From NCBI GenBank assembly GCA_045592105.1, contig JAZNUB010000033.1, positions 162 to 64,161 on the forward strand: DNA of 64,000 bases, read 5' to 3'. The DNA comes from Eubacteriales bacterium. GTDB taxonomy: Bacteria; Bacillota; Clostridia; Oscillospirales; CAG-382. How positions within the stretch are numbered: the first letter of the stretch is position 1; each line of letters begins with the position of its first letter. The position numbers and the translations under genes were made by a program. The notes beneath the pieces were generated by a model, which worked only from the letters and a program-made list of their open reading frames with translations, was not told the origin of the DNA and did no database searches. Of this stretch, positions 431 through 62,074 are shown piece by piece.

Positions 431-650
431 AATGTGCTCACGTGAGCACATTCAGACCGCTGACTTTTATCTTTGTCAGCGGTCTGAATCGACAGGTTTC
501 GACCTGTCGATTTTTTATCCATTGCGAAAGCAATGGTATATCATCGCCGTAGGGCGTATATCATCACGCGAAGCGTGTATCTCATCAGCCGTAGGCTGTA
601 TTCCGCTTTCGCAATGATGACATACAAGGCTTCGCCGTGATTTGTGCGAG
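431..650. repeat. composite 'terminator + hairpin-ladder' repeat, copy 1
   Basis: 13-bp hairpin 452-487. 10-bp hairpin with TTCG loop 488-511 followed by a T-run. Then 10-mers TATATCATC(A)/GTATCTCATCA (537, 556, 577) and inverted TGATGACATAC (615), separated by short GNRA/triloop hairpins. Positions 545-620 match 17718-17793 at 73/76. Confidence 0.75.
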
Positions 651-748
651 GGTTCAAAGTTATATGAATATTTTGTATGTTATATACAAATTGGCGCAAT
701 GGATATTGTAAGCCGTGCCAAAAAAGAAGGATTTGTGCTGTAAATAAC

Positions 749-4628: not shown

Positions 4629-5360
4629 ATGAAATTACTTATACTTGCCGCAGGGCAGGGCAAGCGTTTGGGCTGTGAGCAAACGCTTATACCCAAGGTT
4701 ATGCGTACCGCGCTTGGCAAGCCGCTTATTCAGTACGTTTTAGAGGCGGCGGATTTTGTGCCTGAAAAGGACGTTTGGGTGGTGGTAGGCTTCCAAAAGC
4801 AGGTTGTTATGGAGGCGTTCCCCAATCTTAACTTCGCTTGTCAGGAGCAAAGGCTTGGCACGGGGCACGCGGTTATGTGCGCCGCAGAGGCTATGGGTGA
4901 GTGTGATGACGATATTATGGTTATCAACGGCGATATGCCTCTTTTCCGTAAGGAAACGCTGAGGGCTATAATGGAAGCGCACAAGCAAAACGGGGCAGCT
5001 TGCACTATGGTTACCTTCAACGCCGTTGGGGAGATACCGCCTTTCGGCCATATACTTCGCGATAAGGACGGGTTTGTTGAAGCTATCGTGGAGCATAAGG
5101 ATGCAACGGAGGAGCAAAAGCTTATCCGTGAGCTTAACGCGGGGCTTTACATATTCCGCGGCAAGGCGTTGTTTGGCGCGTTGCCAAAGCTGCAAAAAAG
5201 CGCCGTAAGCGGGGAATACTATTTAACGGACGTGCCCGCCGTGCTTGCTTTGGAGGGTGAAAAAACCGCGGCGTTTATGCTTCCGGACGAAAGTGAAGTG
5301 CTTGGCGTTAATACTGTAGAGGATCTTGAGGCTGTTGAAAAAGCATTAAAGAACAAATAA
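4629..5360 (+). CDS. sugar-1-phosphate nucleotidyltransferase, GlmU N-terminal-domain-like (no acetyltransferase LbH domain)
   Basis: LILAAGQGKRLG and QEQRLGTGHAV motifs. Only 243 aa long. Confidence 0.8.
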   Translation: MKLLILAAGQGKRLGCEQTLIPKVMRTALGKPLIQYVLEAADFVPEKDVWVVVGFQKQVVMEAFPNLNFACQEQRLGTGHAVMCAAEAMGECDDDIMVINGDMPLFRKETLRAIMEAHKQNGAACTMVTFNAVGEIPPFGHILRDKDGFVEAIVEHKDATEEQKLIRELNAGLYIFRGKALFGALPKLQKSAVSGEYYLTDVPAVLALEGEKTAAFMLPDESEVLGVNTVEDLEAVEKALKNK

Positions 5361-7215: not shown

Positions 7216-7433
7216 CCCCACCACTCACTTTGTTCGTGGCGGGGACCCTGAAATATTACCCCCACCACTCACTTCGTTCGTGGCGGGGACCCCGAAGATT
7301 ACCCCACAAAAATACATTTTTGTGGGGACCCCAAGAATATATTTTTGGCTTTCGTTCGCTCGCGCCTCGCGCCGCTTTGCGGCACTCGCGAAAGCCCAAG
7401 GAATATTTTTTGCGGCACATGTCCGCAAAAAAT
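7216..7433 (+). repeat. structured 3'-UTR repeat element (family 2), copy A
   Basis: Two CCCCACCAC-loop-GTGGCGGGG hairpins (7216-7244, 7259-7288), CCCCACAAAAA..TTTTTGTGGGG (7302-7327), nested hairpin 7347-7396 and TTGCGGcacatgtCCGCAA (about 7407-7433). Homologous to 56439-56612. Confidence 0.75.
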
Positions 7434-7449
7434 ATGAGGTTTATATTTT

Positions 7450-7556: not shown

Positions 7557-7632
7557 GGGGCATTAGCGCAGCTGGGAGCGCACAACACTGGCAGTGTTGG
7601 GGTCACGGGTTCGAGTCCCGTATGCTCCACCA
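7557..7632 (+). tRNA. tRNA-Ala (anticodon GGC), CCA encoded
   Basis: Hand-folded cloverleaf. Acceptor GGGGCAT/ATGCTCC with G3:U70, anticodon loop CTGGCAG, T-arm ACGGG-TTCGAGT-CCCGT. Confidence 0.95.
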
Positions 7633-7641
7633 AACAGTGAA

Positions 7642-7685
7642 AATCCGAACCTTTATCCAGTTGGAGAAGGGTTCGGATTTTTAGT
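7642..7685 (+). terminator. rho-independent terminator after tRNA-Ala
   Basis: AATCCGAACC / GGTTCGGATT stem followed by TTTT. Confidence 0.6.
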
Positions 7686-7910
7686 TATGCTTTGATGGCT
7701 CTTTGTAGGTAGTTAGGACAAAAGTTAAAAGGAATATAATGTAAGCAAGCAGTTGCCTTTTGACGACCGCTTGCTTTTTTGCTGGGGGGCGTTCCCTTGA
7801 TTTGTCAGTAAAGTATATTACACCGGTTTTGTAGTACGTGCACACAAATGTGCATATAAAAAACTTTTTGAAAAAACTTTTTCAAAAATTTTCCGGCTAT
7901 CGGAGAGGGC

Positions 7911-7940
7911 AAAGAAAAATCCCCTCTCTGCCGAGAGGGG
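7911..7940 (-). terminator. rho-independent terminator of the LRR-dockerin gene
   Basis: Minus strand: CCCCTCTC-ggca-GAGAGGGG (7940-7921) followed by ATTTTTCTTT. Confidence 0.6.
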
Positions 7941-7976
7941 AAGTCAAGTATGGTTTAGTGTTAAGCGTAAGTTTTT

Positions 7977-10900
7977 TTAAAGGCTGTCGATAATGCCTGC
8001 ATCGTATTTAAGAATCATCGCAGCATCAAGGTTGTCTGCAGAACCGTCGTTGTTAACATCGGACCTATCTACGTTGATAGTCTCGATGATACCGGCATCG
8101 TATTTCAACACCATTGCAGCATCAAGGTTATCGATGTAACTATCTCCGTTAATGTCACCTAACAAAGTATGAATTTTTACATCATCGGGGAATATAGTAG
8201 TATTGTTGTATACTAAAGCATAACTACTCGGTTCAACATCCATCATTTTAACTATTTGTCCATTAAACTCTCTGTTGTTGATAAGTGGTATATTATCCTT
8301 GGTGATGGTTCTTAAACGTTCTGTACCGGCCCCATATTCTGTCACGGTATACTCCATAGTTCCTGAATCTGTCGCAATTATCTTAACAGAATATTTTTGG
8401 TCAGTAGGAAGAGCGATATATTTTTCACCACCCTCTACAAACACGTCAATCCCATCAGCAACATATTCCTTAATATTATCTACTATTCTTACAACTTCTT
8501 TACCGCTTTCGTCACAAACAAATACATTAACAGGACATTTTATGGCAATGACTTTTGTGTTACTTGCCACCGTAGAAGACGAATTGGTGTTGTGGCATTG
8601 CAAATTGTCCATTGTTCTTTTTTGAGCCAAAATATCGGTAATCAAACCATCGTAATCATCTCTACTAAATAGTTTAATGATAAGTGAATCGCTTTTTGTT
8701 TCGAGCGAATTGACCGTATGTTGCATTATATAACCCTGTGTTGCTTTATGCAAAGCAAACGCATACTCGAAAAGAGAAACTGCATTATCATTTCTATCAT
8801 TATATAACTTAGACTCATAATGATTTAAAGTGTTAATTATATACTGCGCGAATTCAGACATTGCAACAACTTTGCTCATTTCTGCCGCTTTTCCACTGTT
8901 ATCACATAGAATATCACTAATGCAGATACCTAAAGTCGCACCAGTAGCAACAGCGCCCAACCCTGTACTAATAGTAGAAAAAGCAGTTGTAGAAGAAAGT
9001 AATGCTCCAGATTTTAATGTTATATTTCCTATAGCGTTACATATTGAAGATACCACTTGCTTTTTAAATAAAGTATTAAATACATCAAGTGTAATGTCAC
9101 CAGCCATATCTCGAACTTCATTTAATATTTCAGAAGAATATCCTAAATAAGAATCAACATTTACATAATGATATACAGCATCTTTCAATTTCTTTTCAGA
9201 ACTTGGAATTTGATTATACAAGTTTTGAATTACTGCTTTAAATTCGTCATCCATATCTTTATATGCATTCAGGACTGAAACACCATCGATGAAATCAGCA
9301 ATGTCGTTTGTGATATCCACACTTAACTCAAAGAATGAAAAATATTGTTGTGTTTTATCGATTGCCGCAAAAGCAGAGTTGACTTTATCAATACTAACTT
9401 TATCTCTAAGTTTTAATACGACAAGATCACGAATTTCATCATGTACATCCATTCCTTCAGTTGTGTATTTGCTCTTTTTTAGCACCTTATCGATTGCGTT
9501 GTCTGTTACATTTAAGTATCCCGTGTAGTCATCTTCAACGATTGTTGACACTTCAGACAAAATTGTTTTATAGTTCCCAACCCATTCTTTTACAACGGGG
9601 AGCAGTGAAACATGTCCCAATTGCGATGTGTTCATTAATTCAATCAAAATGTCGGCAAACACAACTTCATAATAATTTTCAAAATCAAATGTGGAATACT
9701 TTGACCAATTATATTCATCCTCATACCACTTATAGTCACCCGTTTTAAGCGTAACCATTGTTTCGCCGTATATATTTTGTTTTGAAATCTTATAATCCTT
9801 ATTTGACGATATAAAATCAATATGCTCGTTAGCACTCTTTGTTTCAAGATTTTCAATAGTAAACGAGTACTCGTCCGTTAGGGTTTCAAAACTTTCCGAT
9901 TCTAAAGATACTGTAACAGTATAATTATTACCGGAAGATGCAACGGTCAAGTTGTTCGGGAAGAGCATTAGAATGTCATCAACCGCCTGTGTTAGAGAAA
10001 TCGCATCTAAAGTAACAGTATAGGTATTCGTATATGTATCTCTATCAAAAGACAGTCCTGTGCCATTAACCGAAGCAGTAAGAGTTATTGGTTTAATATC
10101 CTTAAAGGTTTCTTTTTCTGTATCTTTGGCAATTATTTCATCAATGCCGGATATATTTGCTACAGCTTCTTTTAATTTATTTTCAAGCAAAATATAGATT
10201 TCAACACAGTCAGAAATAGAGGATACCTCGCTGTAAAAGCCTCCATCAGCATAATATTGCTTTGTATCATAAGTGCTTGTGTAATTTAAAACGTTAGGAT
10301 CTCCAACATATACGTGGCAAAATGTGCTCAAGTTAAGGTCATTTTTACTGTTAATTAAAATATGTTCATACCCTTCAGAAAGACCTGTAATTTGGCCATT
10401 ATCATCAATTTTAATAACTCCTGAATCTTCATAGAGTTCTGCATTCCAATCAATATCAGATGCATTAACAACTTTATCATTAGAATAAACGAGTTCTCCG
10501 TTTACATTAGCAACATCACGGCTATGTACATTTAAAGTTTTCGTTTCGCCAATATCAAAAATAACAATTGGTTCTTCAAAGTACCATTGTTTAAATGAAC
10601 TTCCGGGGTTTATTGGATTTGGTTCAGTGGCGGTTGTTCCCCAATGAACTGTTGCACTACAGTTATCAAGCCAATCTTTATCCCAACCTTTGGGCTGTGA
10701 TTCGGCTTGGCAATAGATATCTGTGAGAAAATCACAGGCATAAAATGCTCCCAAAACGATTATTGTTACAGAATCGGGAATTTCTATGCTTGTTAGCGAG
10801 GTGCAATTTGAGAATGCAGAACGACCGATTGATGTTACAGAATCGGGGATTTCTATGCTTGTTAGGGCAGAACAACCTGCGAATGCATAAAAACCGATCG

Positions 10901-11681
10901 TTGTTACATAATTAGGAATAGTAGAATTTTTACAACCTGCAATAAGTTTATTTGTCGCAGTTTCAATCAAGCAGTTATCTTTGCTATGATATACTTCATT
11001 ATTAACATCAACGGTTATCGATGCTAATGATGAGCAACCGGAGAATGGATTCCAATCGATTGCTGTTACAGAAGCGGGAATTTCTATGCTTGTTAGCGAG
11101 GTGCAATTTGAGAATGCAGACATAACGATCGTTGTTACAGAAGCGGGGATTTCTATGCTTGTTAGTGAGGTGCAATTTGAGAATGCCCCATGACCAATTG
11201 ATGTTACAGAATCGGGGATTTCTATGCTTGTTAGTGAGGTGCACCTTGAGAATACACTAGGACCGATTTCTGTTACAGAATCAGGGAGTTCTATGCTTGT
11301 TAGTGAGGTGCAATTTAAGAATGCAGAAGAAACAATTGTTGTTACAGAATCGGGGATTTCTATGCTTGTTAGTGAGATGCAATTACAGAATGCCCTATCA
11401 CCGATTATTGTTACCGAATTAGGGATTGTTATGCTTGTTAGTGAGGTGCAATTATAGAACGCATCATAATCAATTTTCGTCACAGGCAATCCATTGATTT
11501 CTGCAAGAATTACCACACTTGTTACCGATTCATCGCAATCGTCAACGTAATATGTATTGTCTTCGCTTAGTGTGTATATTAAACCTTGTGAATCGGTTAC
11601 CGCAGAAGCCGACAACGTTGAAAGCGGAGCGAGGGAAAGTATCATTACAGCTGTGAGAATAATGGACAGAATTCTTTTCAT
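7977..11681 (-). CDS. secreted 1234-aa multidomain protein: signal peptide, BspA-type leucine-rich repeats, Ig-like (Big_2-like) domain, ~700-aa unknown region, C-terminal type I dockerin
   Basis: Start moved to the ATG at 11681 (RBS AAAGGAG; MKRILSIILTAVMILSLAPLSTLSASA). About 10 repeats of the type CTSLTSIEIPDSVTxIGxxAFxxC. C-terminal duplicated GDINGDSYIDNLDAAMVLKYDAG / DVNNDGSADNLDAAMILKYDAG. Confidence 0.85.
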   Translation of the reverse strand: MKRILSIILTAVMILSLAPLSTLSASAVTDSQGLIYTLSEDNTYYVDDCDESVTSVVILAEINGLPVTKIDYDAFYNCTSLTSITIPNSVTIIGDRAFCNCISLTSIEIPDSVTTIVSSAFLNCTSLTSIELPDSVTEIGPSVFSRCTSLTSIEIPDSVTSIGHGAFSNCTSLTSIEIPASVTTIVMSAFSNCTSLTSIEIPASVTAIDWNPFSGCSSLASITVDVNNEVYHSKDNCLIETATNKLIAGCKNSTIPNYVTTIGFYAFAGCSALTSIEIPDSVTSIGRSAFSNCTSLTSIEIPDSVTIIVLGAFYACDFLTDIYCQAESQPKGWDKDWLDNCSATVHWGTTATEPNPINPGSSFKQWYFEEPIVIFDIGETKTLNVHSRDVANVNGELVYSNDKVVNASDIDWNAELYEDSGVIKIDDNGQITGLSEGYEHILINSKNDLNLSTFCHVYVGDPNVLNYTSTYDTKQYYADGGFYSEVSSISDCVEIYILLENKLKEAVANISGIDEIIAKDTEKETFKDIKPITLTASVNGTGLSFDRDTYTNTYTVTLDAISLTQAVDDILMLFPNNLTVASSGNNYTVTVSLESESFETLTDEYSFTIENLETKSANEHIDFISSNKDYKISKQNIYGETMVTLKTGDYKWYEDEYNWSKYSTFDFENYYEVVFADILIELMNTSQLGHVSLLPVVKEWVGNYKTILSEVSTIVEDDYTGYLNVTDNAIDKVLKKSKYTTEGMDVHDEIRDLVVLKLRDKVSIDKVNSAFAAIDKTQQYFSFFELSVDITNDIADFIDGVSVLNAYKDMDDEFKAVIQNLYNQIPSSEKKLKDAVYHYVNVDSYLGYSSEILNEVRDMAGDITLDVFNTLFKKQVVSSICNAIGNITLKSGALLSSTTAFSTISTGLGAVATGATLGICISDILCDNSGKAAEMSKVVAMSEFAQYIINTLNHYESKLYNDRNDNAVSLFEYAFALHKATQGYIMQHTVNSLETKSDSLIIKLFSRDDYDGLITDILAQKRTMDNLQCHNTNSSSTVASNTKVIAIKCPVNVFVCDESGKEVVRIVDNIKEYVADGIDVFVEGGEKYIALPTDQKYSVKIIATDSGTMEYTVTEYGAGTERLRTITKDNIPLINNREFNGQIVKMMDVEPSSYALVYNNTTIFPDDVKIHTLLGDINGDSYIDNLDAAMVLKYDAGIIETINVDRSDVNNDGSADNLDAAMILKYDAGIIDSL
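10740..11465. repeat. near-identical 69-bp tandem DNA repeats encoding the LRR units
   Basis: TCTATGCTTGTTAG(C/T)GAGGTGCAAT recurs at 10783, 10852, 11083, 11152, 11221, 11290, 11359 and (11428). The period is exactly 69 nt. Confidence 0.85.
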
Positions 11682-11883
11682 AATATCATATCTCCTTTTG
11701 ATTTTTTGCAACATAATCTTCATTATGTTGTATTTGACTTAATTCCTATCAACTGTTAACACAAGCAAACTGTATAACGTAAAAAACGATGGCGCATATT
11801 TTTAAACGCTTGCAACTTTTTTCGTAATTAAAAAAAGTGCGCAGTCGAAACCACGCACCGAAAAACGCAGTTTCGCTCATTGT

Positions 11884-12009
11884 TGCTACACAATTTCACA
11901 CCTGAACGGATATGACAAGCAAAGCCTACGTTTTTACCAAACGTATAGCCGTTCAAGATTGATAATTGTGTAGCACGAATATTATATCACGAACTGTTTT
12001 GTTGTGCAA
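11884..12009 (-). promoter_or_regulatory. promoter plus long inverted repeat at the start of the LRR-gene leader
   Basis: Minus strand: TTGCAC (12009-12004), 17-nt spacer, TATAAT (11986-11981). 12-bp arms TGCTACACAATT (11884-11895) / AATTGTGTAGCA (11964-11975) with inner TGAACGG/CCGTTCA pairing. Confidence 0.4.
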
Positions 12010-12126
12010 CCGTTTTTAGGTAAAAAATAACAGTTTAAAGCGTTTTTACTATATTTTCAATGATTTAATTCAATTAAGAACAATGCTTTATAGAGAGTTT
12101 AATAGAAAAGTTGGATTAAAAAGATT

Positions 12127-12549
12127 TCAGCCCTTAGGGAGTAAGGTTTTGATGCCTGTCTCCCTTTTCTGTTTTTGGGGCTCGGCGGTGGATTCCTCGG
12201 TGGAATAGAATTCGATGATATCGGGTAGAAAAAGACGGGCGAGGGATTTGATAACGTGGTCGGGGATTTTTTCTTCCGCCACATTGCTTTTCAGGTAGCT
12301 GCTTAGTCTGTCGCAGAGTATTTTTGCTGTCTGAGAGATTACCGAGCTGTCTAAGGGCCTTGGCAAGGTCATAACCGCCAAGACAAATACACAGCCTAAG
12401 ATAGCTATAGCAAGCTGTATTACACTGTAGGTGCCGAGGCTGTCTAAGACACCGATTTGTGTGGACAGTACTTGGCTTTGGGGCAAGGTCATAAGCTTGG
12501 CTTGGGTATCAAGCAAAGTTACGGATAAAATAATAAAAGCTAAAAACAT
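12127..12549 (-). CDS. hypothetical membrane protein (140 aa), last gene of the mob operon
   Basis: RBS AAAGGAG 8 nt upstream. Two hydrophobic segments. No recognisable family. Confidence 0.6.
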   Translation of the reverse strand: MFLAFIILSVTLLDTQAKLMTLPQSQVLSTQIGVLDSLGTYSVIQLAIAILGCVFVLAVMTLPRPLDSSVISQTAKILCDRLSSYLKSNVAEEKIPDHVIKSLARLFLPDIIEFYSTEESTAEPQKQKRETGIKTLLPKG

Positions 12550-12552
12550 TGG

Positions 12553-12744
12553 TTAAATCTCCTTTTCTGTTGGTTGTCGTAATGGCGGAGCGGCTTTGCC
12601 ACTTTTGCGCCGTTTTTTAAGCCTTCGCATCAACGGCGCTATAAAAAGCCTGTCCGTTGATTCTAGGATAAGTAAAACGCTTTCGTGTACGGTTGCAAGG
12701 CTTGCTATGACAAGTGTCATAACGGATAATAAGGTGTTTTTCAT
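12553..12744 (-). CDS. hypothetical small membrane protein (63 aa) with basic C-terminus
   Basis: RBS GAAAGGA upstream. N-terminal TM helix followed by RRLKKRRKSGK. Sits directly downstream of the relaxase gene. Confidence 0.55.
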   Translation of the reverse strand: MKNTLLSVMTLVIASLATVHESVLLILESTDRLFIAPLMRRLKKRRKSGKAAPPLRQPTEKEI

Positions 12745-12817
12745 ACGTGTTTCCTTTCTAAATTAAATCTATCTTACTAAGACAAATGCAGGGCATATAG
12801 CTTTGCATTTGTTTTGC

Positions 12818-14143
12818 TTAATAATCGTAGTCATACTCTTGCTCTGTGGTGCGCCACTCTTCTCGACTTTCCCAGTAGCGTTTCGCTTCCGGTACGTTGT
12901 TGTAAAGCTCGTAAAAATCGTTCTCATAATCCTCTATTTCGGATATTGCGGTCTTGAGTTCTGAGCGAGCTTCATCTCTTTCCTTAATCGCTTCGTCCCG
13001 TTCCTTTTCTGCTATGTGAAGGCGCTTTTTTAGGTTTTCCACAGTGCTGTTATAAAAGCTTTTTAACTTTTCTTCAATGTCCCTTATCGCGTCACGCGCC
13101 CAGTCGTGTAGGGTACGTGCGTTGAGGCATGCTGCGAACTCCTTCAAGGAGAGGATTATCGAATCTTCACCAATCAATCTTTTTTTCGTCTTGGCATCAC
13201 GCTTTAACTGTTCGGGAGATACAGGCGGTGGGAGTTTCTTATACGCCTCAAGCTGTGCCTTAAGAGGCGCAAGCTCGCTTTCCGCTGAGTCTATTTCTTC
13301 GGTCAAGCGAGTGACCTTCCTTTTGCCGTCCTCTATGCTTCTTTCCAAATCCGCTTTGTACTTCTTTGCCACCTTGATGTAGTCATCAACGTTGGCTTTT
13401 TCTTTTAGCGCCTTTTGCAAGTCGGCTTCGGCATCGGTTTTGAAGGTTCGGCTGCTGCGACCTCGTTTTGCAAGCTTTTCGGCGGTTTGCTTTTTGTACT
13501 CGTCCTCGCCTAACTCTTTCCGTTTTTCTGCTTCGGCGGCTTTGTCGTAGATTTCGCAGTCTGCAACGTCCCATCCCTTGCTTTTCATATAAGCAGGGAT
13601 TTCTCGGTTAATCTTGTTGAAGAACTTAAGATTATGCACATCTTTGGCGCATAGGCGACCATCGGCTGTCATTGGCTCCCAAAAAATGTGAGCGTGGGCG
13701 CCAAGCTCGTCAAAGTGATAGGCAACGCTTTTTATGTTGTGCTCTCCGACGATTTCTGAGAATTTGCATAAAGCATCTGCGAGAAAGCGATGCTGGTCTT
13801 GGACGGCCAAGGCGTTCATAAAGGAAGCCGGCGGTTTAATAATAGTCGCAATCATCGCAACGGCATCTTTACGGATTTTTCTGCCGCCTTTTGCGACGGA
13901 TTCGGCGCTAAGGGCTTTGATGTGTTCTTCCGAATACGCTAAAAGCTCTTTTGCCGATTTGTAACCTACTATAAAGTTTTGACCGCTTAGCGCCCTGTCA
14001 ATGTCCGGGTCAAGACCGTACCGTTCCTCAAGGGCTTCTTGAGCAACGGATTGAAAACTGCCACAGCTTTTTGATTTAGTTCCAACGTTGTTAAGCTTCA
14101 GGGAAGGAAGTCCGATTTTGATACCTGTATTAGATGTGCTCAT
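12818..14143 (-). CDS. MobV-family (Mob/Pre plasmid recombination enzyme) relaxase
   Basis: HFDELGAHAHIFWEP matches the HxDE..(P)HxH motif of Mob_Pre relaxases. Long C-terminal coiled coil. Start moved to the ATG at 14143 (RBS AAAGGAG). Confidence 0.75.
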   Translation of the reverse strand: MSTSNTGIKIGLPSLKLNNVGTKSKSCGSFQSVAQEALEERYGLDPDIDRALSGQNFIVGYKSAKELLAYSEEHIKALSAESVAKGGRKIRKDAVAMIATIIKPPASFMNALAVQDQHRFLADALCKFSEIVGEHNIKSVAYHFDELGAHAHIFWEPMTADGRLCAKDVHNLKFFNKINREIPAYMKSKGWDVADCEIYDKAAEAEKRKELGEDEYKKQTAEKLAKRGRSSRTFKTDAEADLQKALKEKANVDDYIKVAKKYKADLERSIEDGKRKVTRLTEEIDSAESELAPLKAQLEAYKKLPPPVSPEQLKRDAKTKKRLIGEDSIILSLKEFAACLNARTLHDWARDAIRDIEEKLKSFYNSTVENLKKRLHIAEKERDEAIKERDEARSELKTAISEIEDYENDFYELYNNVPEAKRYWESREEWRTTEQEYDYDY

Positions 14144-14403
14144 ATAAATGCGCTCCTTTCTTTGACGAGTCCGGGATAAATTTTCTGCATGGCCTCGCCG
14201 TACATATTGGTTATTAAAGAAAGGTGGCACCGATAATAGTTTTAGCTAAAAACAAAAACCGCCGTGTTATCCACGACGGCAAAAGAAAGAGAAAGATGAG
14301 TTTCGCATCATCCCCTCGTAGATTTATACCATAAGTATGTGCCCTCGTACTTATTGACATAAGTACAGGGCGCAGGGGAGACCCCTACAACCCCCAGCGG
14401 GAG

Positions 14404-14457
14404 ACGAAGGAAACGAGGGGAACGAAGGGAACGACGGGAACGAGGAAAACGGGGAAA
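14404..14457. repeat. six tandem 9-bp purine-rich units ACGA(A/G/C)GG(G/A)A
   Basis: ACGAAGGAA ACGAGGGGA ACGAAGGGA ACGACGGGA ACGAGGAAA ACGGGGAAA, read directly from the sequence. Confidence 0.8.
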
Positions 14458-14488
14458 AGCGGTAAGTGAGGCTTACGCTCTCTTACCG

Positions 14489-14533
14489 AATATATATGTG
14501 TTCGTAGGCTTTGCCGCGAAACACATATATATT
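14489..14533. promoter_or_regulatory. 14-bp perfect inverted repeat (candidate oriT or recombinase site 1)
   Basis: AATATATATGTGTT (14489-14502) / AACACATATATATT (14520-14533) with a 17-nt loop. Lies between divergent mob and recombinase genes. Confidence 0.45.
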
Positions 14534-14680
14534 ACATAACTTTAGCGTTTTTACTCACCAAACACAAATATGTTACACGGCTTCGTTGCTCTGCGCCTAC
14601 GCAACATATTTCCGTTACACGCCTTCGCCAGCTGTTGCCGCGAAGCACGTATATATTACACGGCTTTGCTTCCCCCCCCG

Positions 14681-14719
14681 GTAATATGTATGTGTTACAG
14701 CGAAACACATACATATTAC
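14681..14719. promoter_or_regulatory. 16-bp perfect inverted repeat (candidate oriT or recombinase site 2)
   Basis: GTAATATGTATGTGTT (14681-14696) / AACACATACATATTAC (14704-14719) with a 7-nt loop. Paralogous to 14489-14533. Preceded by a C8 tract (14672-14679). Confidence 0.45.
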
Positions 14720-15013
14720 ACAACTCTGCTCAAAACCAAAATGTAAACATTTTATGAACCGAAGCGGCACGGTGGAGGCACCTGGGGATAAAAATGCAGA
14801 AAAAGCCTTTGAGTTGGGTCGCACACCTTCACTCGAGGGCTTTTTTGAAAAGTGCTCTAAGACAGCTCGGCTTGACTGCAGACTCGGTTTGCGGTATAAT
14901 ATAGGGAAAAGAGAGCTTTTGAAGGACGAAAACATTATTTTAGCACTAATATTGTAATACATATACAGACGCACAAAAAATATTGCGTTAATAGATGAAT
15001 GAAAGGTATTTAG

Positions 15014-16642
15014 ATGATGGAAGAAAGAAGAAACGCAGTAATTTATGCAAGGTTTTCCTCCGACAATCAGCGTGAGGAGTCTATTGAAGGTCAGCTTCGT
15101 GAGTGCAAGGCTTTTGCCGAGAAGAACGGCTACCTTATCGTAGGCACTTACATAGACCGTGCCTACTCTGCTCGTACCGCTGACCGCCCCGACTTTCAAA
15201 ACATGATTAAGGACAGCGCAAACAAGTCCTTTGATTATGTTATAGTCTGGAAGCTTGACCGTTTTTCAAGAAATCGCATTGACTCTGCTATGTATAAGAG
15301 CATGTTGAAGAAGAACAAGGTTAAGGTCATATCCGCTACCGAAAACATAACGGATGACCCAACGGGAATACTTATGGAAGCCGTACTTGAGGGAATGTCC
15401 GAATATTATTCGGCAGACCTATCTGAGAAAATTCTGCGCGGACTTACGGAAAACGCTCTTAAATGCAAATCCAACGGCGGAGCTGTTCCAATTGGATATA
15501 AAGTATGCAATCAGTATTATGAGATAGACCCTCTTACTGCTCCTGCGGTGGTGGAGGCTTTTGAAAGCTATGCAAACGGAGCAACGATGCGCCAAGTTGC
15601 AGATGAGCTTAACGCAAAGGGCGTGAAGAACAACGTTGGCGGCAAGGTTACCGTAAACGCTGTTGCCCGAATGCTTCACAACCGAAAATATATAGGCGAG
15701 TACAAGTTCAGGGACATAATAACCCCTAACGGCATACCTGCGATAGTAACCGTTGAGCTTTTTGAACGTGTACAAAGCAGAATGGAGATAAACAAAAAAG
15801 CCCCTGCCAAGCACAAGGCAGAGGACGAGTACATACTGTCGGGTAAGCTGTTTTGTGGCAAGTGCGAAAGAATGATGACTGGCGAAAGCGGCACAAGTCA
15901 TACTTTGGATGTACACAGATATTACAAATGCTACGGTGTCAGAAAGCACTTTTGCGATAAGAAGACGGTCAAGAAGGATTACATCGAGAACCTTGTTATA
16001 AAACATATACAAAGCATCATGTTCGATGATAAGCTGATTGACCTCTTGGCTGATGACGTTTTAGAGGAACTAAACAAAGAAAATACTGTTATTCCTATTT
16101 TGAGAAAACAGTATTCTGAGACAGCTAAAGGCATCGAAAACATCATCAATGCCATACAGCAGGGGATACTTACCCCGTCAACCAAACAAAGGCTTGAGGA
16201 ATTGGAAAGAGCCAAAACAGAGCTATCTATGCAAATAGCTAAGGAGGAAATGAAAAAGCCGGCTCTTACAAAAGCAATGGTTGTGGAATGGTTTACAAAG
16301 CTTAGAAAGTTTGACATCACCAAAACCGAACACCGCAGAAGATTGGTTGACGCTTTTATCAACGCAGTTTTCCTTTACGATGACAGAATAGTAATTGTGT
16401 TCAATTACAAAGACAGCGCAAAAACAACGTCCCTTGAAGACGTAACCGCTTCTCCCATAGGTTCAGATTTAAACACGGACGCTCCACCAACAAAAACAGA
16501 ACATTTGTCTACCGACAAATGTTCTGTTTTTGTTTATCCAAGCCGCAGGCTTGGCATATCATCAGTCCCTGCGGGGCTGGATATCATCACGGCAACGCCG
16601 TGTATCTCATCACGCGCCAGCGTGCATTTCCCTGCGGCTTGA
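15014..16642 (+). CDS. large serine recombinase (resolvase catalytic domain + recombinase domain + zinc ribbon + coiled coil)
   Basis: AVIYARFSSDNQREESIEGQ (catalytic Ser region), VWKLDRFSRN, and CGKCERMM...YYKCYGVRKHFC zinc ribbon. The last ~50 codons run through a terminator hairpin and the repeat module, so the native C-terminus is doubtful. Confidence 0.85.
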   Translation: MMEERRNAVIYARFSSDNQREESIEGQLRECKAFAEKNGYLIVGTYIDRAYSARTADRPDFQNMIKDSANKSFDYVIVWKLDRFSRNRIDSAMYKSMLKKNKVKVISATENITDDPTGILMEAVLEGMSEYYSADLSEKILRGLTENALKCKSNGGAVPIGYKVCNQYYEIDPLTAPAVVEAFESYANGATMRQVADELNAKGVKNNVGGKVTVNAVARMLHNRKYIGEYKFRDIITPNGIPAIVTVELFERVQSRMEINKKAPAKHKAEDEYILSGKLFCGKCERMMTGESGTSHTLDVHRYYKCYGVRKHFCDKKTVKKDYIENLVIKHIQSIMFDDKLIDLLADDVLEELNKENTVIPILRKQYSETAKGIENIINAIQQGILTPSTKQRLEELERAKTELSMQIAKEEMKKPALTKAMVVEWFTKLRKFDITKTEHRRRLVDAFINAVFLYDDRIVIVFNYKDSAKTTSLEDVTASPIGSDLNTDAPPTKTEHLSTDKCSVFVYPSRRLGISSVPAGLDIITATPCISSRASVHFPAA

Positions 16643-16722
16643 TGAGATACAATGCTCCGCATTGATGATATACCGCAACAAGTTGCGGATGATATACACG
16701 CCTTCGGCGTGATTGAGACGTG
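16486..16722. repeat. composite 'terminator + hairpin-ladder' repeat, copy 2
   Basis: 18-bp perfect hairpin 16492-16531 (loop TACC). Left 10-mers at 16555, 16581 and 16602 (xTATxTCATCA). Right inverted 10-mers at 16640, 16663 and 16688 (TGATGAxATAC). Every spacer forms its own 4-7-bp hairpin. Confidence 0.8.
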
Positions 16723-16737: not shown

Positions 16738-16766
16738 TTGAAGTAGCCTATAAAATATGATATAAT
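16738..16766 (+). promoter_or_regulatory. sigma-A-type promoter of cassette 1
   Basis: TTGAAG 16738-16743, 17-nt spacer, TATAAT 16761-16766. Confidence 0.5.
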
Positions 16767-17449: not shown

Positions 17450-17518
17450 TAATATACAATTCATTTGGACACCTTATGTTCGAATCCCCCCGTTTAGACA
17501 TCTTTTATCACGTTTAAG

Positions 17519-17845
17519 GCAACAAAAACGCAATTTTGTCTACCGACAAAGGTGCGTTTTTTGGATGATATTTGCCTGCGGCAAATGATATTGGCTACGC
17601 CAATGATGACGGCTTCGCCTAATGATGTGTGGCTTCGCCGCAGTTTGAGGCAAACATCGCATCATTGCGGAACGAAGTGGAGCAACATCATTTTTAGCAA
17701 AGAGAAAAACATCATATCGCCGTAAGGCGTATATCGTCACGCGAAGCGTGTATCTCATCAGCCGTAGGCTGTATTCCGCTTTCGCGATGATGATATACAA
17801 TTCCTGCGGAATTGATGATATACACGGCTTTAGCCTTGATTTATT
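17519..17845. repeat. composite 'terminator + hairpin-ladder' repeat, copy 3
   Basis: Imperfect 17-bp hairpin 17524-17561 with the same TACC loop. Four GATGAT(AT)+hairpin units, then an inverted block. Core 17718-17793 matches copy 1 at 73/76. Ends in CTTGATTT, which supplies the -35 of the next cassette. Confidence 0.8.
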
Positions 17846-17888: not shown

Positions 17889-18335
17889 ATGAATACACAG
17901 ATGTATTCCAAGGAAAACTTTTTAGAAATGGATCCTATGCATGATTCATACGCTTCAAAAATACATGTTTTAAATAACACTTTGATCATTACATATGATG
18001 AGCTTGATAAGTGTGTGCAAAATGCTGATGGATCACCTTGTTATAAATATAAACGCTTAGTTATAAAGTACGAATTTGACTCTTTCTGTGATGCAAAATT
18101 ATACTATGGTAAAAACAAATATAAAATCATTGACTTGCAAGAACAAATAGGGATATTTAACAAACTGATGGACGGCTGTGTATTTATGTCGTATAAGTAT
18201 GCAGTGGATTGCTGTAAAGAAATAACCTTGGATTTTAACATAAGAAAAAGGCGAAAAGATAGGTTTTTACACAATAAATATTGGGGTGTAGAAATAAGTC
18301 TGGATGCTACAATGGTTACATATGATTGGATGTAA
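17889..18335 (+). CDS. hypothetical protein (148 aa), possible immunity-type protein
   Basis: Start moved to the ATG at 17889 (RBS AAGGGAGG). The upstream part of track ORF 17748.. lies in the repeat. No family recognised. Confidence 0.55.
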   Translation: MNTQMYSKENFLEMDPMHDSYASKIHVLNNTLIITYDELDKCVQNADGSPCYKYKRLVIKYEFDSFCDAKLYYGKNKYKIIDLQEQIGIFNKLMDGCVFMSYKYAVDCCKEITLDFNIRKRRKDRFLHNKYWGVEISLDATMVTYDWM

Positions 18336-61963: not shown

Positions 61964-62074
61964 GCGGCAGAGTATAACCCTTGCGCGTAAAGTGCCGCAT
62001 TACCGAACGGGGAGTTGTCGGGCGGACGAAAAGCGTTTTTCGCTTGCGGTGCAGGGTTAGCATCCCGCTGTCGC
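61964..62074 (+). promoter_or_regulatory. THF (tetrahydrofolate) riboswitch, class I
   Basis: Conserved blocks AGAGTA, GCGCGTAAAGTG, GGGGAGTTGTCG, ACGAAAAGCG, GCGGTG and GCATCCCGC appear in the order of the Eubacterium siraeum THF aptamer (recalled from memory). Located upstream of a folate ECF S-component. Confidence 0.75.

Follow-up and report, generated by a model that had tools for sequence, protein, structure and literature searches.

A Gut-1-like array of variable hairpins and conserved linkers at tRNA 3' ends in gut Clostridia

The stretch of DNA analyzed here, 64,000 nucleotides (nt) of contig JAZNUB010000033.1 from a member of the Eubacteriales (hereafter the window), carries at positions 16486-16722 one copy of a multi-copy modular intergenic repeat in which the linker GTATATCATC separates the hairpins of a left arm and GATGATATAC those of a right arm. 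Our study shows that this is a genuine repeat family tied to tRNA 3' ends, that its short hairpins and a long-range helix, P1, are its conserved structures, and that its linkers are conserved as sequence and not as pairing partners. Judged by sequence and layout, the element is best classified as a divergent relative of the Gut-1 RNA motif, falling below the membership threshold of that family and representing a much larger type. As to its function, we give about an even chance to a reading in which it is a Gut-1-like, tRNA-linked array that presents its linkers on a single-stranded scaffold.

A repeat family tied to tRNA 3' ends

The copy at 16486-16722 runs from a 21-bp hairpin through TTTATCC and a first hairpin, H1, to three left units, a 27-nt centre, three right units, and a closing GTGATT. 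Its parts, with the left linkers numbered L1 to L3 and the right ones R1 to R3, are as follows.

16489-16509 and 16514-16534 (arms), plus strand: terminator-type hairpin, 21-bp perfect stem, loop TACC, flanked by an A-tract and a T-tract
16533-16554, plus strand: TTTATCC, invariant columns in the alignment of canonical elements, and H1 (CCAAGCC-GCA-GGCTTGG)
within 16533-16554, plus strand: 5' strand of P1, TTATC-C-AAGCCGCAGG, from P1 pair counts and the RNAalifold consensus
16554-16624, plus strand: left arm, three units of G[C/G/T]AT[A/C]TCATC and a hairpin, from sequence and covariation
16563-16579, 16588-16602, and 16611-16624, plus strand: left-arm hairpins hpA, hpB, and hpC
16554-16563, 16579-16588, and 16602-16611: left-arm linkers GCATATCATC, GGATATCATC, and GTATCTCATC
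16631-16645, plus strand: 3' strand of P1, in which CCTGCGGCTT complements the H1 5' arm and loop, and GATGA of R1 pairs with TTATC
16641-16714, plus strand: right arm, three units of GATGA[G/T]ATAC and a hairpin, then the terminal GTGATT, from sequence, motif count, and covariation
16650-16664, 16673-16688, and 16697-16711, plus strand: right-arm hairpins hp5, hp6, and hp7
16641-16650: right-arm linker GATGAGATAC; 16664-16673 and 16688-16697: right-arm linkers GATGATATAC
16709-16714: element end, GTGATT

An earlier note, made from the sequence alone, had described left 10-mers that are inverted relative to the right ones and separated by palindromic spacers, and the sequence bears this out. 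It had also placed the leading hairpin and its TACC loop correctly, with a stem of 18 bp (16492-16531) that proves to be 21 bp long (16489-16534). All the spacers are 5-7-bp hairpins whose stems reach into the 10-mers on both sides, taking up a terminal C(A) from the one before and an initial (T)G from the one after, which leaves the linker an unpaired core of only ~8 nt (TATATCAT). The stem-loop and T-tract at 16489-16534 are those of an intrinsic terminator, which in related loci starts directly after the CCA end of a tRNA; it is absent from the output of a consensus terminator scanner because its T-run lies inside the extended stem.

With at most one mismatch, TGATGAKATAC occurs 16 times in the window against 0.70 expected. 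Fourteen of the 16 matches fall in three clusters (~536-625, 16554-16697, and 17729-17823), and the window itself holds three copies of the element, the other two being the following.

488-642, plus strand: terminator hairpin, TTTATCC, H1 (CCATTGCGAAAGCAATGG), three left units and one right unit, GTGATT
17522-17841, plus strand: composite copy with a related terminator hairpin, a compact Gut-1-like arm (ATGATAT linkers, ~17564-17650), degenerate left units, and canonical units
17728-17823: canonical part of the composite copy, two left and two right units, followed by TTGATT, the -35 element of an outward promoter

Beyond the window, scanning a one-genome-per-species collection with a two-unit pattern, whose fixed form requires two specific left-type units, gave at least 120 further loci (designated by L and three digits), which together with the motif count confirms the earlier suspicion of a genuine repeat. 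Among the matches listed, the carriers are metagenome-assembled genomes (MAGs) from ruminant and human guts. Most bear the labels Oscillospiraceae, Acutalibacteraceae, or Ruminococcaceae or are assigned just to Clostridia/Eubacteriales. Many copies sit at contig ends, and tandem copies, curtailed copies, and contig breaks are common. The same pattern returned nine matches in IMG/VR, all of them chance two-unit ones, and blastn of the element against a phage collection and a plasmid collection returned none.

The commonest architecture, found in 50 of 100 orientable elements, has three left and three right units (3+3); most of the others have unequal numbers of the two, and arrays with left-type units alone exist. 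Apart from a few truncated or composite copies, all these 100 elements have a left-type arm beside the terminator. Among the 89 elements with enough flanking sequence, 54 have a co-oriented tRNA or tmRNA gene (13 kinds, identified with ARAGORN) that ends 34-50 nt before ATCC, and the order at these loci is tRNA-CCA, terminator hairpin, TTTATCC, and array, in the same orientation as the tRNA. The remaining elements are mostly second in a tandem or lie behind a CCA-ended tRNA remnant, and nearly all terminators are preceded by a CCA or by what remains of a tRNA 3' end. The same terminator sequence can stand behind a variety of tRNAs from one species to another, terminator types occur in free combination with H1 types, and orthologous tRNA-His and tRNA-Ser loci bear different arrays. 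The terminator-plus-array unit is thus a shuffled module that turns over and not a static flank. When empty sites were sought, exact-protein look-ups of the window genes gave no matches on record, and a single BipA metagenome scan gave loci 58-83% identical, without synteny and without canonical arrays; neither a target-site duplication nor a clean empty site was found. In five loci from five species (L013, L030, L047, L088, and L115; e.g., L030, minus strand, ~256), an insert of ~38 nt (GACGCTCGCAGGCTCGCTATTCCGTCGCTTCGCTCCTTA) interrupts a linker, each time at the same position (..ATA^...^CATC). Mostly it is the linker of the first left unit, in one case that of a right unit, and the insert is either a nested mini-insertion or a subfamily marker.

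The closest known family is Gut-1 (Rfam RF01706), described as three hairpins from human gut sequences belonging to no sequenced organism, for which no function or context was given (Weinberg et al. 2010, PMC2864571). Gut-1 is the best and only recurring Rfam signal on the arrays, with all scores in the window below the gathering score of 50 bits: 22.2 bits at 16551-16634 on the minus strand, and 24.7 and 24.4 bits in the composite copy at 17522-17841. The same model gives 41.4 bits (E = 7e-7) at L210 4938-5006, in an array behind a four-helix-bundle gene cassette. At gathering thresholds, Rfam returned nothing over the arrays of the window or of 15 loci. The earlier note had recognized no named repeat here, which stands for CRISPR, REP, and attC, whereas Gut-1 proves to be the best, though sub-threshold, Rfam match.

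The relation to Gut-1 rests on layout as much as on score. One seed sequence, BAAZ01025322, runs from a tRNA 3' end through a terminator, GUGAUAU-linked hairpins, and a complement of the first of these to inverted AUAUCAC units (PMC2864571, supplementary file 95); this context, which we read from the seed alignment, matches the layout of 54 of the 89 elements above. Both types combine variable short hairpins with a conserved linker of 7-10 nt, both come from guts, and the inverted arm and the H1/centre complement are present in at least one Gut-1 seed. Short hairpins with covariation, three or more in number, are present here. As for the linker, it is RUGAAAU or RUGAnAU in Gut-1 (GUGAUAU in some seeds) and GAUGAUAUAC here, sharing only UGAUAU, that is, a TGATAT core, with those seed members. 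The present linker differs in being longer and of another sequence, the scores are 22-25 bits against 50, and in the present GATGATATAC type the terminator-proximal arm has a polarity opposite to that in Gut-1. An intermediate form at 17564-17600 of the window joins ATGATAT linkers to the Gut-1 terminal hairpin TTGCCTGCGGCAA. Literature searches on the 10-mer, on tRNA-linked repeats, and on any follow-up of Gut-1 found nothing beyond the 2010 paper.

Some observations on related arrays stand by themselves. In the composite copy, the Gut-1-like arm (~17555-17650), with ATGATAT linkers and 11-13-nt hairpins, directly follows the terminator hairpin and scores 24.4 bits with the Gut-1 model, and degenerate left-type units come after it and run into the canonical units. 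L043 has, 530-663 nt downstream of its four-helix-bundle gene, a Gut-1-type two-arm array (GTGAAAT/ATGAAAT, then ATTTCAT); this array and the one at L210 4938-5006 are bona fide Gut-1-type arrays downstream of four-helix-bundle cassettes, and the two array types thus co-occur in one locus. Just upstream of the tRNA-Ala promoter of the window, 7216-7440 holds a third kind of hairpin-plus-linker array, with hairpins that include CCCCGCCAC...GTGGCGGGG and CCCCACAAAAAT/ATTTTTGTGGGG and with linkers of the ACCC-GAA(A/G)AT(A)TTA type and AAGGAATATTTTT. The tetrahydrofolate (THF) riboswitch at 61966-62072 (70.1 bits, Rfam) has no relation to the repeat.

Hairpins and a long-range helix as conserved structures

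Across 100 related elements, the 159 right-arm spacers include 139 with a perfect stem of at least 5 bp, a number that shuffling reduces to 3; of the 202 left-arm spacers, 140 have a stem of at least 4 bp, and 7 do so once shuffled. Spacers measure 9-17 nt in the left arm (extremes 7-28) and 13-16 nt in the right. Pairing itself was tested on a MAFFT alignment of 45 canonical elements, all of the 3+3 layout (alignment A1). There, the local hairpins are 92% paired and 29 of their 43 pairs show compensatory change, both sides having changed; their covariation score is 0.379 against 0.107 for shuffled alignments, with none of 500 shuffles reaching the observed value, and ~0.04 for slid controls. 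The earlier claim that the spacers keep hairpin structure and not sequence is thereby upheld. That their sequences are unrelated to one another fails for the centre, since 16631-16641 (CCTGCGGCTTG) is the exact complement of the H1 5' arm and loop (16539-16549).

This complement forms P1, in which the H1 5' arm and loop pair with the centre. In alignment A1, P1 is 97% paired with compensatory change in 7 of 11 pairs, at a score of 0.458 against 0.153. The complement is kept in at least five H1/centre variants, among them AAGCCGCAGG/CCTGCGGCTT, ATTGCGAAAG/CTTTCGCAAT, AAACC.../...GGTTT, AAGTC.../...GACTT, and an indel variant, GACA/TGTC. On the same alignment, RNAalifold selects P1, extended by TTATC:GATGA of R1, together with the small hairpins, and passes over the ladder that the two arms could form with each other.

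That ladder was the fold proposed at first: as a single strand, the element would form a long helix of paired 10-mers, L1:R3, L2:R2, and L3:R1 giving ~30 bp of interrupted helix with small hairpins standing out at the junctions. Such rungs could serve, for instance, as attC-like duplex boxes for a recombinase. The arms are indeed complementary, 92.5% of the cells being paired, the 3+3 layout is the commonest, and the single-sequence minimum-free-energy folds of both strands adopt the ladder. Folding both strands, the check that had been suggested, confirmed their stability, with z = -9.85 for the plus strand and z = -8.76 for the minus strand of the element region relative to shuffled sequence. 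The rungs, however, are paired no better than shuffled ones (92.5% against 92.8%), their covariation is 0.045 against 0.046, and at the two variable positions, which vary independently, 20-28 of the 45 sequences are mismatched. The layout is other than 3+3 in half of the elements, and some have only left units. Moreover, the first five bases of R1 are taken up by P1, which crosses the pairing L3:R1, so that P1 and this innermost rung are mutually exclusive. The absence of ladder covariation, the copies of other layouts, and the conflict with P1 argue that the arms are complementary only as a consequence of one motif occurring in both orientations, and we rejected the long helix of 10-mers, a functional ladder being very improbable. 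In the 45 aligned elements, the spacer hairpins are preserved and the pairing of the arms does not exceed that of the shuffles.

In the copy at 16486-16722, the innermost pair does match exactly over 11 nt, C/G variant included, and this does not extend to the family: in 50 canonical elements, the left C and right G variants combine independently (C/G 6, C/T 15, A/G 8, A/T 21). A kissing interaction between left GNA and right TNC loops was also discarded, the loops of the copy at 16486-16722 not being complementary by eye.

Neighbouring genes and possible modes of action

We propose a model in which the element acts as a single strand, its hairpins and a P1 of 15-16 bp that closes the proximal arm over a long range being kept by compensatory change. 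A complete element reads tRNA-CCA, a terminator hairpin flanked by A- and T-tracts, TTATCC, and H1; then a proximal arm of two to four units of short hairpin and linker, (G)TATATCAT(C), and an inverted half-copy of H1; and finally a distal arm with the linker in opposite polarity and GATT, often followed by an outward promoter. The linkers would be repeated recognition sites held between stable hairpins, making the array a multivalent scaffold for a trans-acting factor, for which the candidate partner would be the four-helix-bundle protein encoded beside ~10% of copies. The most likely physical form would be an RNA from the tRNA-sense strand, arising by terminator read-through or as a trailer, and the element would travel as the tRNA-proximal end of small cassettes that stack in tandem at tRNA 3' ends. 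RNA from the tRNA-sense strand is the leading reading, and use of either strand as single-stranded DNA (ssDNA), favoured by the dyad-symmetric loops and the signs of turnover, its serious rival.

The strand evidence speaks for that RNA in the left arm, where the tRNA-sense strand carries 21 G.T against 5 A.C oppositions, and in P1, which has G.U pairs on the plus strand, including a near-invariant U.G. The triloops, nearly all closed by C-G, are distributed differently: on the plus strand, the left arm has 18 GNA and 5 TNC loops and the right arm 0 GNA and 33 TNC. This dyad symmetry means that each unit has an intrinsic polarity, which the two arms show on opposite strands.

Several points weigh against the scaffold RNA. 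The right arm has no significant strand bias (G.T 2 against A.C 6 in unique hairpins), and the dyad-symmetric loop bias, which a single-strand RNA does not explain, fits better with arms read on different strands, as ssDNA or by convergent transcription. Neither strand yielded a promoter for the array itself, which sits downstream of an apparently efficient terminator. A plain protein sponge does not explain why both linker polarities are retained, and the covariation of P1 could reflect a DNA inverted repeat homogenized by recombination. The four-helix-bundle protein is tied to the arrays weakly, through adjacency at ~10% of copies, and the collection pattern, in requiring two specific left-type units, biases the sampling.

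The genes beside the arrays bear on these questions, beginning with the pair of features immediately right of the array at 16486-16722.

16738-16766, plus strand: outward promoter for the four-helix-bundle gene, TTGAAG, 17 nt, TATAAT with a TG extension, kept in L087, L110, and L215
16788-17135, plus strand: four-helix-bundle gene (PF05635/TIGR02436, 'KNYLL' subfamily), recurrent immediately right of arrays

Among the open reading frames (ORFs) within ~8 kb of 120 arrays, four-helix-bundle proteins (PF05635/TIGR02436) are the sole enriched real family; no transposase or integrase family is enriched there, and in loci of up to ~8 kb no cargo was found lying between a left and a right arm. The 'KNYLL' gene lies 35-100 nt right of an array, in the same orientation, in 10 species and in the window, amounting to ~10% of copies. 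Its homologues form 3418 clusters, mostly on contigs of <1.5 kb, of which the top 120 are 83-96% identical. For two further homologues, a full 3+3 array stands directly upstream in 10 of 12 places, the other two being a contig cut inside the array and one without upstream sequence. The protein matches PDB 2rld, a five-chain entry of unknown function, and the PADLOC defence-system models gave no match for the cassette proteins. Database entries of the four-helix-bundle protein are often called at 153-161 aa instead of 115 because gene callers run the ORF upstream into the array, the same artefact as in the recombinase ORF described below.

The right ends of arrays fall into three classes, with a strong outward promoter, a promoter specific to the four-helix-bundle gene, or a T-loop-like module. 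The strong outward promoter (TTGATT-17-TGnTATAAT) is present in 22 of 74 elements against 5 of 67 control windows. The T-loop-like module, GAGTTCGAAnnC...AAAAC...AAAATATCTTTTTT after GATT, was noted in ~18 of 76 arrays (e.g., L005, L027, L110, L080, and window 643-665) and is perhaps a degenerate trace of a tRNA 3' end or else a weak promoter (TTCGAA-18-TAAAAT). In L215, L026, and L021, the 3' end of the upstream tRNA is repeated right of the cassette; a search for such duplications right of arrays found them only in L021 and L026, the one shared feature elsewhere being the T-loop-like module. A gene starting MNTQMYSKE (17889-18335 in the window, ~3760-3810 in L033), without a Pfam or NCBIfam match, follows an array and a TTGATT-17-TATAAT promoter in both places and may be a second recurrent cassette gene. 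In addition, a cassette-end motif, GGACACCTTnTGTTCG...CGTTTAGACAnCTTTTATCACGTTTAnGGCA, followed by a terminator, sits after the gene next to the four-helix-bundle gene in two species (window 17468-17563, L215 ~4975-5060).

The window reads, in order, tRNA-Ala, a large serine recombinase (LSR) element, an array with the four-helix-bundle and DUF6678 genes, and an array with another recurrent cassette gene, which looks like successive integrations at the tRNA end. The features of the recombinase region are these.

7557-7632, plus strand: tRNA-Ala gene (Rfam tRNA, 62.4 bits; ARAGORN, tRNA-Ala), the original left neighbour of the terminator and array
7624-7633, plus strand: left copy of the 10-bp direct repeat GCTCCACCAA, the tRNA-Ala 3' end, read from the sequence
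7634-16480, no strand assigned: integrated mobilizable element of 8.85 kb, not part of the repeat, from Pfam domains and the flanking direct repeat
15014-16642, plus strand: LSR ORF with Resolvase, Recombinase, and Zn_ribbon_recom domains (Pfam)
16481-16490, plus strand: right copy of GCTCCACCAA, the displaced tRNA-Ala 3' end, read from the sequence

The earlier note had taken the serine recombinase gene as fused to the repeat and as a hint of a recombination substrate. Its ORF does run into the array, its last ~50 codons (from ~16489) coming from the terminator and array; in a tblastn search, LSR residues 492-542 match solely terminator and array DNA at other loci. The 8.85-kb region also encodes a 1248-aa LRR_5/Dockerin protein and a Mob_Pre relaxase (Pfam), and, with LSR domains at one end and a short direct repeat at the tRNA 3' end, has the marks of an integrative element. 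In L008, a near-identical terminator and array lie directly behind an intact tRNA (Trp), where the window has the recombinase gene. The direct repeat and the L008 arrangement indicate that 7634-16480 is a mobilizable element integrated between tRNA-Ala and its terminator, and the ORF runs into the repeat because this integration took place at the tRNA-Ala 3' end. The recombinase is therefore incidental to the repeat, and we rejected it as a partner. In L104, another LSR, of 35% identity, lies directly against CCA, terminator, and array, which fits LSR elements that target tRNA 3' ends. As a side observation, the 8.85-kb element brings its own terminator for tRNA-Ala, at ~7645-7682.

The same neighbourhoods support a reading at the level of DNA, which we consider possible though doubtful. 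The array would be a selfish or recombinational element of the kind discussed below (REPIN/BIME, MITE, attC-like), whose unit of hairpin and GTATATCATC is recognized on folded ssDNA by a transposase or recombinase encoded in trans; the inverted arms would present one arm whichever strand is exposed, e.g., on the lagging-strand template, and the arrays would mark the tRNA-proximal ends of small cassettes integrating in tandem. The loops agree with this, since c-GNA-g triloops occur on the plus strand in the left arm (18 against 5) and on the minus strand in the right arm (33 against 0); such loops are very stable in DNA. It also accommodates identical terminator-plus-array modules behind different tRNAs in different species, tandem and decayed copies, the differing arrays at orthologous tRNA-His and tRNA-Ser loci, the tRNA 3'-end duplications flanking cassettes, the recurrent cargo with its own promoters (four-helix-bundle and MNTQMYSKE genes), and the 38-nt nested insert of five loci. 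tRNA genes are usually co-directional with replication, so that the tRNA-sense strand would be the lagging-strand template. On the other hand, the surroundings of the arrays show no enriched transposase or integrase and no cargo between the arms, and no clean empty site, target-site duplication, or phage or plasmid array was found; the fixed orientation relative to the tRNA fits a transcript, as it would fit site-specific integration.

Alternatively, the inverted 10-bp sets could be binding sites on double-stranded DNA, either arm-type integrase sites of a miniature tRNA-integrating element with abutting attL and attR, or iterons or operators of the outward promoter. They do have a tRNA 3' end to their left and, in many cases, a T-loop-like remnant to their right, the strong promoter at the right end exceeds the controls, and the -10 region of the four-helix-bundle promoter (TATGATATAAT) resembles a right-arm unit. 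This would leave the hairpin potential kept by compensatory change unexplained, the spacing given by the spacer lengths above is not helically phased, the G.T versus A.C bias points to a single strand, and no integrase is associated. We consider such sites highly unlikely. We give as little credence as to the ladder to a bidirectional transcription insulator, in which a strong two-way terminator, backed in each direction by three weak hairpin-plus-UAUAU units, would screen the highly transcribed tRNA gene from the cassette promoter and vice versa. A U/A-rich tract (G-UAUAUCAU) does follow every hairpin on the inward-reading strand of each arm, the element always abuts a terminator and often precedes a promoter, and the polarity of the units is dyad-symmetric. 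Yet terminators need no conserved CATC/GATG, the U content is poor, Gut-1-type relatives have the opposite arm order with units reading outward, and P1 is left unexplained.

A broader and more speculative proposal, unlikely as it stands in full, would unite these observations: the arrays, Gut-1 included, would be the recognition or recombination sites of a gene-cassette system at tRNA 3' ends in gut Clostridia, read as folded single strands on either DNA strand, with the four-helix-bundle (Avd/S23p-like) protein as the partner that binds them. Such a system would be a counterpart of REPIN-RAYT or attC-IntI without an HUH or tyrosine recombinase in cis, and its cassettes would be small and promoter-bearing.

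Gut-1 has been in Rfam since 2010 with a one-line description. Our study provides a taxonomic home for the Gut-1 class and a much larger sister type, mainly in MAGs of the Oscillospiraceae, Acutalibacteraceae, and Ruminococcaceae, and, for most copies, a fixed site directly after a tRNA or tmRNA gene and its terminator. It further provides the full grammar of two arms of opposite polarity with a covarying helix that closes the proximal arm, a recurrent four-helix-bundle gene as candidate partner, and many copies with an outward promoter. If the arrays are protein-binding RNAs derived from tRNA trailers, or ssDNA sites that organize cassettes at tRNA ends, they would represent a new mechanism in abundant gut bacteria. 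In practice, these repeats break metagenome assemblies, leaving many copies at contig ends, and mislead gene callers.

Comparison with known systems

Arrays of clustered regularly interspaced short palindromic repeats (CRISPR) have direct repeats of ~23-55 nt around unique spacers of ~26-72 nt and are accompanied by a leader or cas genes. The present array has 10-nt repeats in two inverted sets and 9-17-nt palindromic spacers that recur between loci, and no cas genes are among the annotated ORFs at 1-30 kb of the window. Miniature inverted-repeat transposable elements (MITEs), which are marked by terminal inverted repeats, a target-site duplication, and presence/absence polymorphism, were considered as well: the ends of the element are loosely symmetric (TTATCC and hairpin against hairpin and GTGATT), and no target-site duplication was found. 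Other candidates, namely, k-turn or C/D box, DnaA box, Spo0A box, omega-protein heptads, P1 pac, strong gyrase site, and type III antitoxin repeats, were dropped because no matching features were seen.

The likeness is greater to repetitive extragenic palindromes (REPs), their mosaic elements (BIMEs), and the REPIN-RAYT system of REP hairpin doublets and REP-associated transposases, which also form multi-copy intergenic mosaics of alternating small palindromes at the 3' ends of transcription units. As in REPIN-RAYT, a single-copy protein gene is flanked by repeats, and nested insertions into the repeat occur. In REPs, however, it is the hairpins that are conserved, with a GTAG motif, whereas in the present arrays conservation lies in the linkers and the hairpins are variable. 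No HUH/RAYT gene was found, PF05635 being the sole enriched family near 120 arrays, and the placement in fixed orientation at tRNA 3' ends is not a REP property.

With integron attC sites and gene cassettes, the arrays share a structure conserved over sequence, imperfectly inverted arms, tandem small genes of unknown function, and probable action as folded single strands. They differ from attC in having no R''/L''/L'/R' boxes (RYYYAAC...GTTRRRY) in their sequence, no IntI, and no attI, and no tyrosine recombinase is nearby, either in the window annotation or within ~8 kb of 120 arrays. Their cassettes carry their own promoters and lie at tRNA 3' ends, and many small hairpins stand in place of one bulged hairpin.

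The resemblance to the sponge RNAs CsrB and RsmZ is a functional analogy only: both have many short conserved single-stranded motifs among stable hairpins that would allow multivalent protein binding. The motif of the sponge RNAs, GGA, lies in loops; here, the motif lies between hairpins and in both polarities, is unrelated in sequence, and is known from DNA. Lastly, the intervening sequences of 23S rRNA genes, with their S23p ORF (PF05635), bring together the same protein family and an inverted-repeat element at a stable-RNA gene. In those, the inverted repeats enclose the ORF inside the rRNA gene and RNase III excises the insert, whereas in the elements described here the ORF lies outside the arrays, downstream of the tRNA terminator, and has its own promoter.

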